DNA of 64,000 nucleotides from Escherichia phage IME08. Both the position numbers and the translations under genes were made by a program. The DNA is taken from the sequence record NC_014260.1; one strand, written 5' to 3'. The notes below the pieces were generated by a model. The model did not search any database, was not told the origin of the DNA, and saw only the letters and a program-made list of their open reading frames with translations. Below, piece by piece: positions 1 through 8,308 of this stretch. Position 1 is the stretch's first letter, and every line of letters starts with the position of its first letter.

Positions 1-159
1 GGCAAATCCTTAATTCAGCCAGAAGAGTCTATTATAATTCCGTTTTCGAACATCAGAATTTCTACAGAAAAGATAAAGTTAAATGAAGTTGAAGTTAACA
101 ATTTAGCAAAAAGTATTTTAGAATCAACAACCCAAGAAGAGGTTCATAGTGTGTTTTAG
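1..159 (+). CDS. 3' end of an ORF entering from upstream (identity unresolved; gp24-side late gene or N-terminal part of the collagen-like fibre gene)
   Basis: Open frame from window edge to TAG 157-159 (…EVHSVF*); only 53 codons visible, so coding status is tentative. Confidence 0.3.
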
Positions 160-1349
160 GAATAAACAATTCCCAGATAGAGCCAATAGAGGGTCCGCCG
201 GGCCCTCAAGGAGACCCGGGCCCACAAGGTATTCAAGGCCCGCCCGGCCCTCAAGGAGACCAAGGTCCACAAGGTATTCAAGGCCTTAAAGGAGATAAAG
301 GAGATACAGGTCCACAAGGTATTCAGGGCCTACAAGGACCCAAAGGACCTAAAGGAGACCAGGGTCCACAAGGCATTCAAGGGCCTATAGGTCCTATAGG
401 TCCCGCAGGGCTAATATGGAAAGGAGAATGGGATGTAGATACACTTTACTCTGTCGATGATGCTGTTGGATATGCAGGTGCATCATATTTTTGTATAGCC
501 GAAAATACCGGTAATATACCCACAGAATCGCCGGAAAACTGGGCCTTATTAGCATCGCAAGGAGCTAGAGGAGAATCAGGGGCCCAGGGCCTACAAGGAC
601 CCAAAGGGGATAAAGGAGATACGGGTCTTCAAGGTATTCAAGGACCCAAAGGGGATAAAGGAGATACAGGTCTTCAAGGACCTATAGGGCCTATAGGACC
701 TAAAGGAGACCAGGGTCCTCAAGGTTCTAGAGGTATTCAAGGTATTCAAGGTCCCCAAGGAGACCAGGGCCCACAAGGTTCTAGAGGTATTCAAGGTATT
801 CAAGGACCTCAAGGAGACCAAGGTCCGCAAGGCCTTCAAGGACCCCAAGGAGATAAAGGAGAGGATGGATTCGGAATTGATTCTAAAATAAGTGGGGTAT
901 ATAAAATTCCTGCATCCGGAACCAAAGGACAATTTTATATAAACTTACCTGGGGCAGGTGGTCTTAGATTGATTGTATCAACGGCTGGGACAGGTAATGC
1001 TGTTAAAATAGGATACGGAGGTAACTCTAGCACTGTTCAAAGAACATTTACTATAGGATATAATTTAACAGCTAATTATACCGATTTGGCAAAAATAAAA
1101 ACCGGTAGGATAAATTATACAGGGTATACTTCGGTTTCATATAGTAGCGATACAACGGCTCTAGTCGGATATGGGGATATGTATACAGCAATAGCCTCTA
1201 ATAAAGATACTTTAGATTCATGGCATATAGTAATATCAGGCGTAGTGGCAAAATCATCTGCTTCGGCCACTGATGGAAGATTACTTATATCTGTAACTAA
1301 AGTTTTTGATTCCGAAACTCAACAGATTCAAACAGGTGAAATATATTAA
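150..1349 (+). CDS. collagen-like (Gly-X-Y) repeat protein with CBM5/12-like insert and Gly-poor C-terminal domain; no canonical start codon
   Basis: Frame open from in-frame TAG 147-149 to TAA 1347-1349; Gly-X-Y triplets from 192; first ATG/GTG/TTG in frame is at 969. Confidence 0.5.
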
Positions 1350-1378: not shown

Positions 1379-2386
1379 TTATTTGGATACTAGTTCAATC
1401 CAAACATGTCTTAATGTTTCTTTTACACACTCAATGAGCTGCTTTTTAACTTCAACAGGATTTTCAGCGTCAGTTAATTCTAATTCTTCACGGGCAGCTT
1501 CTTCAAGGATATCTTGGACCGTCAAGCCCATTACCTTTCCAAAATCCTTTTTGGAAACTTCGCCAATCTTACTGATAACATTGTTAATACGGTTAACAGT
1601 CACATAATCAGTGAATTGCCACATCAAATCCATATCGTCTTGGGATAAAACTACCGCAGCCTTAATAGGCTTATCAGACTTTTTCTTCTCGCTGAATTTA
1701 GAGTTCTTACATTTAATCGCTACACGATTTCCGTTTGGAAGCCAGGTAGGAATATCAGGTTTAAGTACAAAGCCTTCAGCCGTGAATACTTTACCTTCTA
1801 CCTTAGGAATAAAGTCTGTAGAGTTTGCAATAGTTAGGCCGGCGTTATCCACCGCAAAATTATAATCAGGAATAACTGAATCAAAGTCATTAGGTAATTT
1901 AATAAGGTCTTCAAAGCTACCTGTAGCCAGACATGGGGCTACCTTAAACTTATGGATAATACAGAAGGCTTCCATCAATGTATCGGTTAGAACAGATTCT
2001 GAACCGTCTTCCTTAGTAACTCGGATATCGAACACATAAAAGTCTTTATCACCGTAGTCCACATTCTTCTGGATACCTGGTCCAGCGAATTCGCCATAAA
2101 TCTGGTACGACTGATAATTAATCGATTCAATTAGATGTTGAACAGATTTAATAGAATCAGCATAGTTCTTAAGTACAATTTCATAACCATAGAAATCTTC
2201 AGCAGGGAGGATAGGGCCAGTGCGCTTGGCGCATGTGACTGCGTCACGTTCTATGATTAAACTAAAGTTGGTCCCGTGAATCTTCTCACGTGCAACCCAT
2301 TCACCACCAGTCAAACCGTTGATACGGAGTTTTTCGATAAACTTACTGTTGTAGTGGTTTTCGAGACTGCTATATTTCTTGAACAT
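1379..2386 (-). CDS. rnlB: RNA ligase 2 (Rnl2)
   Basis: 335 aa; near-colinear with recalled T4 Rnl2 ([20 protein letters not shown]…, KIHGTN lysine-nucleotidyltransferase motif). Confidence 0.9.
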
Positions 2387-2500
2387 AAATCACCATAATA
2401 AATATAATTAAATAGAAGAGCTAGTATTCTTCTGTCACCAAGCCAAATGGTTTAACGGAAGGACCTAGACCCATTATAACACATCTAAATTTAAAGCATA

Positions 2501-2710
2501 TTACTTTGAACTAGAACGCGCTTTGCGCCGAACCTTGTTGTTCAATCTTTTACGATAGACAATCTTTTCTTTCGCTTTAAATTTGGCCTTAGCATTCTCA
2601 ACTTCGGTCCAAGCTTTAGCCATATCTCTGGCGGTTCCGCCAATCTTTTTAGCAATATCAATAAAATTCATACCCGATTCATGTAAAAAATGTACTTTAA
2701 TCTTATCCAT
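2501..2710 (-). CDS. small basic helix-turn-helix-like protein
   Basis: 69 aa; HTH-like segment GMNFIDIAKKIGGTARDMAKAW followed by Lys/Arg-rich tail; own early promoter upstream. Confidence 0.4.
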   Translation of the reverse strand: MDKIKVHFLHESGMNFIDIAKKIGGTARDMAKAWTEVENAKAKFKAKEKIVYRKRLNNKVRRKARSSSK

Positions 2711-2738: not shown

Positions 2739-2768
2739 ATAATAACATGAGAATTTTAACTTGTAAAC
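2739..2768 (-). promoter_or_regulatory. T4-type early promoter (minus strand GTTTAC-N18-TATTAT)
   Basis: Plus-strand ATAATA (2739-2744) and GTAAAC (2763-2768), about 30-60 nt upstream of ORF start at 2710. Confidence 0.45.
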
Positions 2769-2862
2769 AGGAGATTTTATGCCAGACAATCCATTATACG
2801 GGCATGACGGTAGAGGTGTATCATTAGAACTCACTAGTGAAAGCACCTTTTAAGGAGGTTAA

Positions 2863-3729
2863 ATGATTGCACTTAAAATAAATGGTCCTAGATATGAATT
2901 GGTTGGTAAGACTGTAACGTTGTATACCGCATTTGTATTACCAGCAGGTTTGACTCTAGATGATATAGAAATTAATTGGTATAAAAATAATGTCCATGTC
3001 CCACAACTTCCTATTGAAGACCCTTTTGAATTGAATTTATGGGATGTTGGATATCCGGCGGCAGGAACATTTTATGCAACTATAACAAACAAGAAAAGTG
3101 GTGAAATAACAAAGAGTAATGAAATAGAACTTGAAATAGGTGTCATTCCAAGAAGAGTAATCCTGGATATAAGCTCTAGGGAATTAATATATGCCGATAT
3201 AGGAGAAACCGTTTCACTTCGCCCGTCGTGTAGAGTAGAACCTACTTATGCCGTACGTGATTGTAGATGGTATAGAAATGGAGTAGAATTATCTAACGAT
3301 GAAGATATTGATATAACAATAGATAGTTCTGATAAATTCGGTACATACATGTTGAAATCTATAGCGACCTGCGAAGGAGCGTATATCCCTGCTTCTGAAG
3401 AACTTTTAGTTGAAATAAAACCTAGAGGGGGTGTATTGCAGTGCCCGTTCATATATGATAACGACCTTAATGCCTATTTACCATATGGCGGCGGAAGAAA
3501 TGAATCTTATATGTGGATAGGTTGGTGGGTGTGGGACGAAATAAGAGAAGCCGTTAGATTAGGAGAAGATTGGACGTTGGATATAAACAACAGCCGTTAC
3601 AAGTATAAATGTGAGTTACAAAAAGTAGCCGACCTTTTGTCTAAGTATCATGAAGTAGAGATACAAGAATCTAGAAACGGATATATTCTGGGGCGTAAAG
3701 ACTTGCTTTATGTTCCGCCTGTACCATAA
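2863..3729 (+). CDS. Hoc-like paralog: two Ig-like domains plus Hoc-type capsid-binding C-terminal domain
   Basis: 288 aa; AAGGAGG RBS; C-terminus YMWIGWWVWDEI…EVEIQESRNGYILGRK parallels Hoc YIWCGWWVMDEI…EVDVQESRNGRIIHRT; Ig I-set-like patterns (INWYKNN…GTFYATITN; CRWYRNGVEL…GTYMLKSIATCEG). Confidence 0.7.
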   Translation: MIALKINGPRYELVGKTVTLYTAFVLPAGLTLDDIEINWYKNNVHVPQLPIEDPFELNLWDVGYPAAGTFYATITNKKSGEITKSNEIELEIGVIPRRVILDISSRELIYADIGETVSLRPSCRVEPTYAVRDCRWYRNGVELSNDEDIDITIDSSDKFGTYMLKSIATCEGAYIPASEELLVEIKPRGGVLQCPFIYDNDLNAYLPYGGGRNESYMWIGWWVWDEIREAVRLGEDWTLDINNSRYKYKCELQKVADLLSKYHEVEIQESRNGYILGRKDLLYVPPVP

Positions 3730-3738
3730 AAAAATAAA

Positions 3739-3754
3739 GGGACCCGAAGGTCCC
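3739..3754. terminator. bidirectional hairpin terminator (GGGACC-CGAA-GGTCCC) flanked by A-run and T-run
   Basis: Between convergent hoc-like (+) and hoc (-) stops. Confidence 0.7.
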
Positions 3755-3761
3755 TTTTTAA

Positions 3762-4895
3762 TTAATAAACGTAATCGTAAATAATTCCAGCATCCAAAGC
3801 GGTTCTGTGAATAATTCTACCATTACGAGATTCCTGTACATCAACCTCCGGATAGTCAGTAATCATTTTTTGAAGAGTATAACGATGGAGATAGAAATCA
3901 CTATCAGGGTCATCGGTTTTCCAGTCTTTGCCTTCAAGAGTCATTTTCTGGATTTCGTCCATAACCCACCAACCACACCAGATATAAGCTGAATTGCGAA
4001 CTGGTAGCGGATGAACGTAAGGTAGTTCGCCCTCTGGAACTGGTGCGACTTTAGCCGTGACTGTTACATTACCAGTTTTGGTAACAGTCGTAGGGTTATA
4101 ATCGGCGGCCGAAACAACAGCAGAAACTTCAATAACCTGTGAACCTTCAGCGCTTGTGTCAATTACTAATGTATCTGTAGCACCCACAACAGGTGAACCG
4201 TCTTTCTTCCAAGAATAAGCAAAAGTGGCACCACTAGGCGCACCTGCTACGGTAGCTTTAAAAGAAGCCGGAGTTCCTTCAGGTACATTAATAGAGGCTG
4301 GCGTTAAATTAACAGAAACCCCAGACATTGTTTTCTTAACAAAAGAAACCGTTACGCCTTTAGCAGCAGTTGCTGAACCGTATTCCGGAGAGGTAACAGT
4401 AACTTCACAATTCAAGGTATAATTTGCTTCGGCTGCTTCAGTTAGTGTAATAGTTTTAGAGGTTTGGCCTGAAATTACGGTGGTATTTCGTTTCCAAACA
4501 TAATTAATTGTTGCACCAGCAGGAGCACCGGTTACATTAGCCGTAACAACTTGGGATTGGCCGACTTCTTTAGAAACGGAAGTAGGGTCCAAAGCCAAAG
4601 AGATATCCATAGTTTTATTAGATACAGTAACTTCAAAGGTGTCTTCGGCTGTCTCAAGAGGACCCGCATCGCCAGGGTCAGAAGTTACTACTACTTTTAT
4701 AACTTTCTTACCCGCAGGAGCAGCACCCGTATATCTCAAAACATTAGTGGTTTCTGGGTTAGCAGCTCCATCAACGGTCCATACATATGCAATGGTTCCA
4801 CCTGTTACAACTGCGTCGGTTGCGGTAGCAGTGTAGTTAGCGCTTTCGCCTATTTTCATAGACGCTGCGCCGGCTATACTTACAGTAAAGGCCAT
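3762..4895 (-). CDS. hoc: highly immunogenic outer capsid protein Hoc
   Basis: 377 aa; matches recalled T4 Hoc along most of its length (Ig-like repeats, KTGNVTVTAKVAP…ELPYVHPLP, C-terminal capsid-binding domain). Confidence 0.9.
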   Translation of the reverse strand: MAFTVSIAGAASMKIGESANYTATATDAVVTGGTIAYVWTVDGAANPETTNVLRYTGAAPAGKKVIKVVVTSDPGDAGPLETAEDTFEVTVSNKTMDISLALDPTSVSKEVGQSQVVTANVTGAPAGATINYVWKRNTTVISGQTSKTITLTEAAEANYTLNCEVTVTSPEYGSATAAKGVTVSFVKKTMSGVSVNLTPASINVPEGTPASFKATVAGAPSGATFAYSWKKDGSPVVGATDTLVIDTSAEGSQVIEVSAVVSAADYNPTTVTKTGNVTVTAKVAPVPEGELPYVHPLPVRNSAYIWCGWWVMDEIQKMTLEGKDWKTDDPDSDFYLHRYTLQKMITDYPEVDVQESRNGRIIHRTALDAGIIYDYVY

Positions 4896-4904
4896 AGTTT
4901 ACCC

Positions 4905-5582
4905 TTATTTTAAAGTGACAAAAGATGAATTACGCGTTTCACGTACTAATACTGAGCCATTACGATTGATGTAATAAATCAGACTGAATAATGTTTGGTG
5001 GGCTGAAGGATGTTGGAAATCTTTAGGACGTTCTTTCCAATCAGGGGTTTCAGAAATCCATTGATAAATCCACCAAGGAACAGTACAGTAACCTGGGTTT
5101 TTACCAATAAGCAAAAGATTGGGACTAAAGTTTTCAGGGAGTTCAAATTTAGGTTTTTCTGATTCTTTAACCAAGGTTATAGCTTGATTGAATTTCTCTT
5201 CGACAAACGGAACAACTTCTTCAATAATCTCGACCTTAGGAAGTTCGACTACCTCAACGACTTCAACTACAGCCTCAGGGGCATCGAACAACAGGGTTGC
5301 TTCTTCTTTAGCAGGTTCGGCTCCATCAATAAATTCATTAGAACCTGTAAGTTCGTCAGCAGCATCAATCAAATCAGAAATGGACAAACCTTCGGTTTCT
5401 GGAAGTGGTTCGTCGGCCAGGGCTTTAAGACCTTCAGTGATATCGATAATCAAATTATCAAACGAACGGGTTTTCTTAAGTTTTAAACCGAACTGTTCGC
5501 CGTATTCGATTAACTTAGCTTTAGCTTCTTTTTTATCTTCGAGTGCACGAAGCTCTTCAATATATTGGCGGTCCATAATCAT
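4905..5582 (-). CDS. inh: inhibitor of prohead protease gp21 (Inh)
   Basis: 225 aa, position between hoc and uvsW as in T4; acidic central region. Confidence 0.75.
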   Translation of the reverse strand: MIMDRQYIEELRALEDKKEAKAKLIEYGEQFGLKLKKTRSFDNLIIDITEGLKALADEPLPETEGLSISDLIDAADELTGSNEFIDGAEPAKEEATLLFDAPEAVVEVVEVVELPKVEIIEEVVPFVEEKFNQAITLVKESEKPKFELPENFSPNLLLIGKNPGYCTVPWWIYQWISETPDWKERPKDFQHPSAHQTLFSLIYYINRNGSVLVRETRNSSFVTLK

Positions 5583-5596
5583 TCTCTTTTCTAGTG

Positions 5597-5604
5597 TATA
5601 AATA
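5597..5604 (+). promoter_or_regulatory. late promoter TATAAATA (uvsW)
   Basis: Exact TATAAATA about 30 nt upstream of uvsW ATG. Confidence 0.6.
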
Positions 5605-5610
5605 TAACTA

Positions 5611-5618
5611 TATTTATA
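5611..5618 (-). promoter_or_regulatory. late promoter TATAAATA on minus strand (inh/hoc)
   Basis: Plus-strand TATTTATA; divergent partner of the uvsW late promoter. Confidence 0.5.
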
Positions 5619-5632
5619 ACTGAGAATTACTT

Positions 5633-7129
5633 ATGCAAATTCAAGTACATTTCGATAATTTTAGTCATGTTCGTATTGAGTGTGATGAATCCACATTCTA
5701 CGAACTCAGAGACTATTTTAGCTTTGAAGCTGATGGATATAAATTCAACCCTAAATTTCGTTATGGTCAATGGGACGGACGTATTCGCCTTCTGGATTAT
5801 AATCGTAAACTTCCTTATGGATTGGTTCCGCAGATTAAAAAATTCGCTGAACAATTTGAATACTCTCTGTGGATTGACCCACGTATTCTTGAACAGGAAG
5901 ATATTTCTCGTGAAGATTTTGACTCATGGGTGGCATCTCAAGAAATTTATTCAGGGTCTACCAAGATTGAGCCCCATTGGTATCAGAATGAAGCCGTATA
6001 CAACGGTCTAACAAAACGTCGCGCAATTCTGAATTTACCTACATCTGCAGGTAAATCATTAATCCAGGCGCTCCTGAGTCGATACTACGTTGAGAACTAT
6101 GAAGGTAAAATTCTTATCTTAGTTCCTACTACTGCACTCGTTGACCAGATGATTAATGACTTCATCGATTATCGGTTGTTCCCTAAAGCCGCAATGCTTG
6201 GAATTCGTTCAGGTACTGCTCGTGATTCTGATGCAATGATTTACGTTTCGACTTATCAAACTGCTATTAAGCAACCTAAAGAATGGTTTGCTCAGTTTGG
6301 TATGTTTATGAACGATGAATGTCATTTGGCTACAGGTAAATCTATTTCTACCATCATCGAAGGCCTAACCAACTGTATGTTTAAATTCGGTTTGTCTGGT
6401 TCTTTAAAAGATGGTAAAGCTAATTTAATGCAATATATGGGTTTGTTTGGTGATGTGTTTAAACCTGTTTCCACCTCCCAATTGATGGAAGAAGGACAGG
6501 TTACAGACCTTAAAATCAACAGTATTTTCCTTCGATACCCAGACGAATTCACTGTTAAGATGAAAGGTAAAGATTACCAATCAGAAATTAAAGTCATTAC
6601 TAAGGCTACTCGTCGTAATAAATGGGTTGCTAATTTAGCTGTTAAACTCGCTAAGAAAGAAGAGAACGTATTCCTGATGTTTAAAAACATCGAACACGGT
6701 AAAACTCTTTTTGAAATGGTTAAAGAGCAACATAAAGAAGTTTATTACGTATCAGGTGAAGTTAATACCGAAACGCGTAATGCTCTGAAAGTAATGGCGG
6801 AAAATGGTAAGGGTATTATTGTTGTGGCAAGTTATGGTGTGTTCTCTACTGGTATTTCTGTTAAGAACCTTCATCACGTTGTATTTGCTCACCCAGTAAA
6901 ATCCAAAATCATTGTACTCCAGACAATTGGTCGTGTACTCCGTAAACATGCTTCCAAATCAACAGCGCAAGTATGGGATATCATCGACGACATGGGTGTT
7001 AAGCCTAAATCAGCTACGGCTAAAAAGAAATATGTTCATTTGAACTACGCCCTCAAACACGCTTTAGAACGTATTCAACGTTATGCTGATGAGAAATTTA
7101 ATTACGTAATGAAACAGGTGGATTTATGA
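5633..7129 (+). CDS. uvsW: UvsW DNA/RNA helicase
   Basis: 498 aa; SF2 helicase motifs (PTSAGKS Walker A, DECH box); T4 position. Confidence 0.9.
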   Translation: MQIQVHFDNFSHVRIECDESTFYELRDYFSFEADGYKFNPKFRYGQWDGRIRLLDYNRKLPYGLVPQIKKFAEQFEYSLWIDPRILEQEDISREDFDSWVASQEIYSGSTKIEPHWYQNEAVYNGLTKRRAILNLPTSAGKSLIQALLSRYYVENYEGKILILVPTTALVDQMINDFIDYRLFPKAAMLGIRSGTARDSDAMIYVSTYQTAIKQPKEWFAQFGMFMNDECHLATGKSISTIIEGLTNCMFKFGLSGSLKDGKANLMQYMGLFGDVFKPVSTSQLMEEGQVTDLKINSIFLRYPDEFTVKMKGKDYQSEIKVITKATRRNKWVANLAVKLAKKEENVFLMFKNIEHGKTLFEMVKEQHKEVYYVSGEVNTETRNALKVMAENGKGIIVVASYGVFSTGISVKNLHHVVFAHPVKSKIIVLQTIGRVLRKHASKSTAQVWDIIDDMGVKPKSATAKKKYVHLNYALKHALERIQRYADEKFNYVMKQVDL

Positions 7130-7609: not shown

Positions 7610-8308
7610 CTATTTATTAGCCAAATTCTTTTCAAATGTTTTAACCATATAACCTACATCTAAATCAGGAAATCCATTCTCAACTATTATGCGTTGAAAT
7701 TTCCTTCTTTTAGGCATTCCTTCCTTTATCCAAAGTTCACGGATTTCCTTTTCAAATTCCCATAATTTACTTCTCATAGAAAGCTTAGGCTGTGAATGTT
7801 TACCTATATGGGCCTCATTAGCCTCTTTGGTACGTTTCTTACCTAATTTGGCTAATGACATAGCTTTTTTAGCTTCTTCTGTATGAGAATATGGATTTCT
7901 TTTATGACCCGCACTTATGGCTTGTTTGGTGGATTCAGACCTTGGAATACCTCGTATTTTCGACGCACTCTTTTCAATAGATTCAGGAGAACGAGTAGTA
8001 CAACTACCTCCTTCACCACCAGGTTTCATATTCATACAGCGAATACCTTTACCAAACTTATCCCAAGCCTCTTCTATCAAAAGCTCTTCGAATTCATAAG
8101 CAAGTTGTTCGGTATCGAAAAAAGTCCTATCGACTATTTCAATTCGGTATTTTAATCTTTTTGCATAATAGATGTAATTACCAGACCCTACATACTTGTC
8201 AGATATTTTATCAGAAGAATGCTTACCAAAATATCGCCTAGTTCCGTTAGGCGAGTATACTAAAGTTTGGTAGCACATATGGTACTTTTTATTTTTCACC
8301 TGCTTCAA
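7610..8308 (-). mobile_element. free-standing homing endonuclease-like gene (seg-like, degenerate GIY-YIG N-terminus with NUMOD-like basic repeats)
   Basis: 232 aa; N-terminal LVYSPNGTRRYFGKHSS…YVGSG resembles GIY-x10-YIG; Ser/Lys-rich repeats (SxxxKxxISxxHKxNP, AKKAMSLAKLGKK) as in I-TevI/Seg DNA-binding regions; overlaps uvsY 3' end. Confidence 0.5.

Follow-up and report, generated by a model that had tools for sequence, protein, structure and literature searches.

Whether a phage that already encodes the head decoration protein Hoc would dress its capsid with a second, shorter protein of the same family is the question raised by an open reading frame (ORF) in the DNA examined here, a 64,000-nucleotide (nt) stretch of Escherichia phage IME08 (sequence record NC_014260.1; hereafter the window). 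The window is T4-like coliphage DNA of the Dhakavirus group, and the ORF, which we call hoc2, lies tail to tail with the canonical hoc gene, with 32 nt between the two stop codons. A preliminary description had proposed that its 288-amino-acid (aa) product joins two immunoglobulin (Ig)-like modules to a Hoc-type capsid-binding domain, and that the capsid could display two decoration proteins competing for the same hexamer site. The ORF, its convergence with canonical hoc and the motifs quoted for it are all present in the sequence and its translations. Sequence comparison and structure models confirm hoc2 as a genuine second Hoc-family gene, encoding a Hoc-type capsid-binding domain and two predicted Ig-like domains, and we consider it likely that its product, from an old clade of short Hocs, serves as an accessory head decoration and would dock at the centres of gp23* hexamers in competition with Hoc. 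The gene had thus been identified correctly and its likely role read sensibly, and the interpretation built on it is partly supported. Coordinates of the features discussed are collected in Table 1.

Pairwise comparison of the two Hoc proteins of the window by BLASTP gave a significant alignment (E = 1e-17) of 176 aa with 29% identity; the motifs quoted are YMWIGWWVWDEI and EVEIQESRNGYILGRK in the hoc2 protein, against YIWCGWWVMDEI and EVDVQESRNGRIIHRT in canonical Hoc. In PHROG the hoc2 protein matches phrog_1149, labeled "Hoc-like head decoration", with an E-value of 1.9e-42, along with three further Hoc PHROGs, and phmmer aligns aa 211 to 278 with residues 299 to 364 of T4 Hoc in the Protein Data Bank (PDB; 5vf3_Z, E = 4.1e-13). 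The proposed kinship of the C-terminal domain (CTD) with the capsid-binding domain of Hoc is therefore borne out.

An AlphaFold2 model of the full-length protein, built from 13 family sequences (mean predicted local distance difference test score, pLDDT, of 86.9), comprises two all-beta domains followed by a mixed alpha/beta CTD, the arrangement that had been anticipated. Both Ig-like domains are modeled at a pLDDT of 88 to 95 in 10-residue blocks. The claim that these modules are unlike those of Hoc holds in part: BLASTP detects no significant sequence similarity between them and the Ig domains of the canonical Hoc of the window, but a Foldseek search of the PDB returns RB49 Hoc, with its three Ig domains, as the best structural match of the Ig-like string (3shs, E = 5e-13), with eukaryotic tandem Ig proteins next. 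A separate AlphaFold2 model of aa 187 to 288 (pLDDT 80.5) contains strands at 13 to 15, 28 to 33 and 78 to 83, a short bridge at 89 to 90, and helices at 35 to 46, 55 to 57 and 63 to 75, and reproduces the four-stranded beta-sheet and helical bundle of the Hoc CTD fold. Its only significant match in the PDB is 8t1x_X (E = 2.9e-6, template modeling score of 0.57 to 0.60, root mean square deviation 2.5 Å), which is the CTD of T4 Hoc in complex with the gp23* capsomer (PMC10385173).

The residues of T4 Hoc that touch gp23 or shape the contact loop are Y293, H295, R300, Y304, W306, W309, W310, D313, Q354, the segment E355-S-R-N-G359 and Y360 (PMC10385173), and 12 of these 14 gp23-contact or loop-shaping residues are identical in the hoc2 protein. 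Every one from R300 to Y360 is retained, as R212, Y216, W218, W221, W222, D225, Q268, the ESRNG loop at 269 to 273, and Y274. The two replacements are of Y293 by F196, at a position that varies within the short-Hoc clade, and of H295 by Y198, where tyrosine is invariant in the clade. Almost every short-Hoc CTD has both of two cysteines, C194 (nt 3442 to 3444, before beta1) and C250 (nt 3610 to 3612, in the last long helix), the sole exception being the hoc_2 protein of AhFM11 (178 aa), which lacks both; the pair is also found in the long or canonical Hocs of locus L008 and of phage CGG4-1, and neither cysteine is present in T4-type Hocs. This co-occurrence suggests a contact or a disulfide.

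The hoc2 protein belongs to a family of proteins of 265 to 290 aa with end-to-end homology, represented by 12 database clusters at 43 to 99% identity and 97 to 100% coverage. A profile search of 1.84 billion representatives returned 26 matches at E ≤ 1e-30, about 13 of them full-length short proteins. Several members are already labeled in GenBank, namely JS10 EpJS10_0177 (EU863409, "hoc head outer capsid protein"), dhabil_241 ("head outer capsid protein"; the closest deposited allele, at 88.5% aa identity), CLB_P2 UNI73281 ("head decoration protein"), the CGG4-1 and ABTNLsp5 members ("outer capsid protein Hoc I") and that of Aeromonas phage 65 ("hoc-2, second copy of the hoc gene"). These annotated second Hocs (273 to 288 aa) align with the hoc2 protein from end to end at 38 to 88.5% aa identity, and those of the coliphages are likewise convergent with hoc and occupy the same position; they differ in that an intact collagen-like gene stands ahead of each, whereas hoc2 has a 24-codon remnant there. 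In a neighbor-joining tree of CTDs, the short Hocs form one clade apart from the canonical T4 and Dhakavirus CTDs, and the canonical Hoc CTD of the window clusters with that of T4. The short-Hoc signatures C-P-x-I-Y-x-x-D-L-N and K-Y-K-C are both present in the hoc2 protein. Since the two CTDs of the window fall in different clades, hoc2 is an old paralog; an origin as a recent tandem or inverted duplicate of the resident hoc is ruled out by the separate old clades and by the lack of significant similarity between the Ig domains.

Second short Hocs are thus annotated in deposited genomes, and papers on Hoc mention them as well; what the window contributes is an example, not a concept. Fokine et al. 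(2023; PMC10385173) reported an additional, shorter Hoc in some phages, in which two Ig-like domains are joined to the capsid-binding domain (314 aa in Serratia phage Muldoon), and two Hoc-like proteins in Enterobacter phage PG7; they suggested that the capsid-binding domain of Hoc is re-used to functionalize the capsid. The Muldoon and PG7 proteins resemble the hoc2 protein as additional, shorter proteins displaying other modules on this domain (PMC10385173). Judged by the match list alone they are probably not close relatives, since neither is among the best 60 tblastn matches. Higher copy numbers were also seen: L008 (1892 to 6861) has two tandem pairs of a collagen-like and a short Hoc gene plus a 932-aa Hoc, and CGG4-1 (L009, 4372 to 10593) has three proteins with a Hoc CTD, which are Hoc I (285 aa), a 944-aa "hypothetical protein" and Hoc II (279 aa).

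The sequence of hoc2 is conserved in the manner of a working gene. Against its dhabil ortholog, the ratio of non-synonymous to synonymous substitution rates (dN/dS) is 0.18 overall, with 0.23 for the first Ig-like domain, 0.35 for the second and 0.08 for the CTD, which is the part of the protein under the strongest constraint; canonical hoc gave 0.16 to 0.17 in the same comparisons. An independent metagenomic contig (L014, SRR27732225) has the same locus state and encodes a protein 98.6% identical to that of hoc2, with 9 synonymous and 5 non-synonymous changes between them (ratio of the corresponding proportions, pN/pS, of 0.15, from small counts). All 43 invariant columns of a 13-sequence family alignment are matched. 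These comparisons support purifying selection on hoc2 and its status as a functional gene, not a dead partial duplicate; the preliminary description had named a recent, non-expressed partial duplication as one outcome that would overturn its reading, and the old clade in the CTD tree together with the dN/dS and pN/pS values speaks against that.

A second short Hoc gene lies directly 3′ of a collagen-like phrog_5073 gene on the same strand in 13 of 13 intact pairs from 12 distinct loci examined (dhabil, CLB_P2, JS10, CGG4-1, ABTNLsp5, the metagenomic loci L005, L008 and L015, Aeromonas phages 65 and AhFM11, Erwinia FBB1, VR7 and VR25; L006 and L007 repeat L005, L016 repeats L015, and L008 holds two tandem pairs). 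As a rule the two genes either overlap or lie no more than 10 nt apart. Collagen repeats are present in the partner, a protein of 335 to 586 aa, which in several loci also has a CBM_5_12-like insert. The pair is found at other genome positions in FBB1 and phage 65, which indicates that it moves as a unit, and the second Hoc of VR7 and VR25 shares just the CTD with the hoc2 protein (49% identity), which indicates that Ig modules are exchangeable within the cassette.

In the window, hoc2 is not directly preceded by a collagen-like gene. In its place is a micro-ORF, which had been described as 25 codons ending at 2856; it does precede hoc2, but consists of 24 codons and a stop ending at 2853. Aligned to the dhabil collagen-like gene, it lacks 12, 39 and 1380 nt, all in frame, and its flanks are 94 to 98% identical; at the protein level it matches the collagen-like protein through MPDNPLYGHDGRG...STF. 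The deletions keep the start codon of the collagen-like gene with its ribosome-binding site (RBS), its last codons and its stop, which overlaps the hoc2 RBS. The same remnant is found in contig L014. The remnant implies that the ancestral state had an adjoining collagen-like partner, and the dhabil alignment rules out the alternative that the micro-ORF is a regulatory leader peptide. In VR7 (L017) and VR25 (L018), a 20-codon ORF (MPDILERKDLLYNRHYLNKY) with its ATG at the same position as that of the micro-ORF stands about 60 to 140 nt before an intact collagen-like gene, so small ORFs recur at this cassette junction.

The preliminary description had also counted a collagen-like ORF of the window as part of the hoc2 locus. 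That gene, at the left end of the window, is instead a separate paralog in its own transcription unit, 1.5 kb upstream of hoc2 and behind a terminator. It also has a frame break at 154 to 159, where frame 1 stops at a TAG (157 to 159) and the collagen repeats resume in frame 3; one added T in the T-run at 154 to 157 would restore a single ORF (...HSVFLGINN...). The gene may be a pseudogene, or the break may reflect an error of sequencing or a frameshift. No homolog of the C-terminal domain of this gene (879 to 1346) was detected in a search of 5.8 billion proteins.

We propose that, after capsid expansion, the CTD of the hoc2 protein would dock in the groove in the middle of the gp23* hexamer in the manner of the T4 Hoc domain, with contacts from the beta-sheet aromatics, the WW turn and the ESRNG loop, and that the two acidic Ig-like domains would stick out from the head as a shorter fiber with a different adhesion surface. 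Because there is one site per hexamer, already used by canonical Hoc, the two proteins should compete and give mosaic capsids, which is plausible from the conservation of the contact residues. The gene comes from a mobile pair, collagen-like gene first and short Hoc gene second, that occupies the plastic region from 24.3 to hoc, and in the window phage the collagen-like partner has undergone in-frame deletion, which left the 24-codon ORF. The protein is like T4 Hoc (8t1x/5vf3; PMC10385173) in its homologous CTD, the same predicted fold, the shared contact residues R300 to Y360, the N-terminal Ig-like string and an acidic isoelectric point (pI; 4.7 for the hoc2 protein). It differs in having two Ig domains and not three, Y293F and H295Y, a 9-residue insertion between beta1 and beta2, an extra conserved cysteine pair, no late promoter directly upstream and a place in a separate CTD clade. 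In architecture and size it comes close to the Hoc variant of PhiPNJ-9 (283 aa, two Ig domains and a CTD), which binds fucose residues of MUC2 and mediates adhesion of the phage to intestinal mucus (Fu et al. 2024; PMC11853027); the PhiPNJ-9 protein, however, is the product of a sole, canonical-type hoc (65% nt identity to T4 hoc) that has lost one domain, not a second paralog.

Several observations weigh against a role as a hexamer-bound decoration expressed beside Hoc. The inserted beta1-beta2 loop of the hoc2 CTD is poorly modeled, with a pLDDT below 50 at residues 206 to 209. In T4, R300 contacts gp23 D336 (PMC10385173), and because the insertion adjoins R300, a change in capsid affinity or orientation is possible. 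Most Dhakavirus records lack the cassette, which is thus dispensable. Literature searches turned up neither proteomic nor cryo-EM nor binding data on the short second-Hoc clade, and those on JS10 and hoc, Dhakavirus and hoc, collagen-like plus Hoc, and VR7 returned no experimental description of it. Expression is the main weakness. A pattern scan found no exact TATAAATA late promoter upstream of hoc2 on the plus strand within the window, as the preliminary description had stated; the nearest exact copies, at 5597 (+) and 5611 (-), occupy the 50 nt that separate inh from uvsW, back to back and each facing one of the two genes. The interval from 24.3 to hoc2 yielded neither a late nor a convincing sigma-70 promoter, whether in the window or in dhabil, JS10, L015 or CGG4-1, and read-through into hoc2 from the upstream collagen-like gene is unlikely because of the terminator behind that gene.

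Candidate promoters nearby were examined and set aside. The near-matches AATAAATA (2397), TATAATTA (2403) and TATCAATA (2656) are unconvincing as a hidden late promoter, and a sigma-70-like site at 2379 to 2408 (+) is unconvincing as a hoc2 promoter; all of them lie antisense to or upstream of 24.3, with a weak terminator-like hairpin (2629 to 2642) intervening. In other phages, exact copies of TATAAATA lie 30 to 55 nt before the collagen-like gene in L005, L008 and Dhakavirus ABTNLsp5, so that the cassette there looks like a late operon, and the cassettes of phage 65 and AhFM11 have one-mismatch sites. The strong RBS noted before hoc2 is indeed present, and the same Shine-Dalgarno sequence occurs in dhabil, where it overlaps the stop of the collagen-like gene.

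The promoter question bears directly on the possibility that hoc2 is a silent relic in the window phage, an ORF not yet decayed in an operon whose first gene is lost and which has no late promoter. The missing TATAAATA and the absence of a good sigma-70 site upstream on the plus strand fit this explanation, as do the deletion of the partner gene and the dispensability of the cassette in the genus. We nevertheless judge it improbable: dhabil and JS10 also lack TATAAATA and their cassettes are intact and constrained, the three in-frame deletions spare the start codon, the RBS and the stop that overlaps the hoc2 RBS, and the intact ORF fits every invariant family column and, for all the small counts, shows a low pN/pS against L014, which has the deletion in common. 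Less probable still, and in our view very unlikely, is a use of the Hoc-type domain away from the hexamer center, at another capsid position or in a soluble role off the virion, for instance to bind glycans of host or mucosal origin or to act as a decoy for antibodies once the cell has lysed. The tyrosine in place of H295, the longer beta1-beta2 loop and the conserved cysteine pair that T4 Hoc lacks could be read in that way; the 12 identical contact or loop-shaping residues, the entire ESRNG loop among them, the agreement of the CTD fold with the capsid-bound T4 domain, and the concentration of constraint in the CTD argue for the hexamer center.

A further explanation takes the strict gene pairing at face value and makes the short Hoc, instead of an adhesin in its own right, the capsid anchor or assembly partner of the collagen-like fiber protein encoded upstream, so that the cassette builds collagen-like head fibers; in the window phage, hoc2 would then work with the paralog at the left end or be functionally orphaned. 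The 13 of 13 pairs, their relocation as a unit in FBB1 and phage 65, and the retention of one gene of each kind in the window all favor it. There is also a precedent for a collagen-like protein on capsid hexamers, namely gp12 of SPP1, which decorates the hexamer centers (cited in PMC7602432); gp12 is unrelated in sequence to the 288-aa protein, and the collagen-like proteins of the cassette are much larger. On the other side, purifying selection on hoc2 persists in two independent sequences that lack the adjoining partner, and the remaining collagen-like gene of the window is frame-broken. The VR7 and VR25 genes are paired and yet encode unrelated Ig domains, which makes a conserved interface between Ig domains and collagen unlikely, and Hoc binding is monomeric whereas collagen helices are trimeric. 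We therefore hold this explanation to be unlikely, and an accessory decoration that competes with Hoc at the hexamer remains the reading that we prefer.

The order of genes from rnlB to uvsW is the T4/JS98 arrangement. The deposited DNA closest to the hoc2 ORF is that of CLB_P2, dhabil, dhaeg and Ec2-ASingh (88.7 to 88.9% nt identity); JS98-type genomes among the matches listed align to the flank only, until about 2778, and the hoc2 ORF is absent from them. Relatives carry hairpins equivalent to the bidirectional terminator that hoc2 and hoc have in common. The sigma-70 or early-type promoter-like site before the micro-ORF is directed at gene 24.3 and conserved in dhabil, JS10, L015, VR7 and VR25, and it may explain the conserved intergenic stretch there.

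The canonical Hoc of the window has 377 aa and three Ig domains, as against 469 to 472 aa and four in dhabil, JS10 and IME341; that of the metagenomic relative L015 also has 377 aa. The Ig domain absent from the window protein sits between repeated KKT(I/M)(S/A)GVSV(T/N)LTPASI segments, a sign that Ig repeats may have recombined. Many relatives (L003, L004, L005, L009, L015, L017 and L018) have two tandem paralogs of gp24 (head vertex) just upstream of rnlB, a position that falls before the start of the window; IME341 has the tandem gp24 paralogs without a short Hoc, so the two do not track each other. Farther downstream, a 232-aa ORF (7610 to 8308, minus strand) between uvsY.-2 and uvsY shares 20 nt with the start of uvsY, matches the phrog_314 "homing endonuclease" (E = 5.5e-17) with no Pfam match, and is probably a mobile endonuclease insertion.

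Table 1. Positions of hoc2, its domains and the neighboring genes and signals in the window
Feature	Position	Strand	Details
Paralogous collagen-like gene	1-1349	+	phrog_5073 E = 8e-106; Pfam Collagen E = 3e-29; runs past left window end
Terminator of the 1-1349 collagen-like gene	1356-1373	both	Bidirectional
rnlB	1379-2386	-	
24.3/DUF2774	2501-2710	-	
Sigma-70/early-type promoter-like site	2739-2767	-	TTTACA, 17-nt spacer, TG-TATTAT; 10/12 consensus, extended -10
Micro-ORF	2779-2853	+	24 codons + stop; remnant of collagen-like phrog_5073 gene
Shine-Dalgarno AAGGAGG	2852-2858	+	4 nt before hoc2 ATG; overlaps micro-ORF stop codon
hoc2 (short Hoc paralog)	2863-3729	+	ATG start, 288 aa, 33 kDa, pI 4.7
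Predicted Ig-like domain 1 (aa 1-95)	2863-3147	+	AlphaFold2 all-beta; Pfam Ig_2 E = 8e-4, below threshold
Predicted Ig-like domain 2 (aa 96-187)	3148-3423	+	AlphaFold2; Foldseek tandem Ig proteins; Pfam I-set weak, below threshold
Hoc-type C-terminal capsid-binding domain (aa 188-288)	3424-3726	+	phmmer T4 Hoc; CTD model vs 8t1x_X
Bidirectional intrinsic-terminator hairpin, common to hoc2 and hoc	3736-3757	both	9-bp stem, 5 G-C pairs, T-runs either side
Canonical hoc	3762-4895	-	377 aa, three Ig domains + CTD; phrog_1149 E = 1e-108
inh	4905-5582	-	
Exact TATAAATA	5597-5604	+	Nearest exact copy on + strand; faces uvsW
Exact T4-type late promoter TATAAATA	5611-5618	-	Upstream of inh-hoc
uvsW	5633-7129	+	

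Two points may be worth following up, namely the strict pairing of short Hoc and collagen-like genes across subfamilies and the natural in-frame loss of the partner, the latter a minor twist. It is an unlikely extension of the pairing that the cassette makes a two-component head fiber, in which the short Hoc on gp23 hexamers recruits or nucleates a trimeric collagen-like fiber bearing a CBM5/12-like domain; if so, some T4-like phages would bear undescribed collagen head fibers, and the window would represent a natural "anchor-only" variant with the adjoining fiber gene deleted in frame and a paralog kept elsewhere. T4 phage display and T4-based vaccines are built on Hoc, which is also the model for how phages adhere to mucus. 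Should the 155 hexamer sites be divided between two Hoc paralogs whose Ig surfaces differ, head adhesion would be tunable or diversifiable with the tail fibers untouched, and natural short Hocs would be ready-made alternative display scaffolds.

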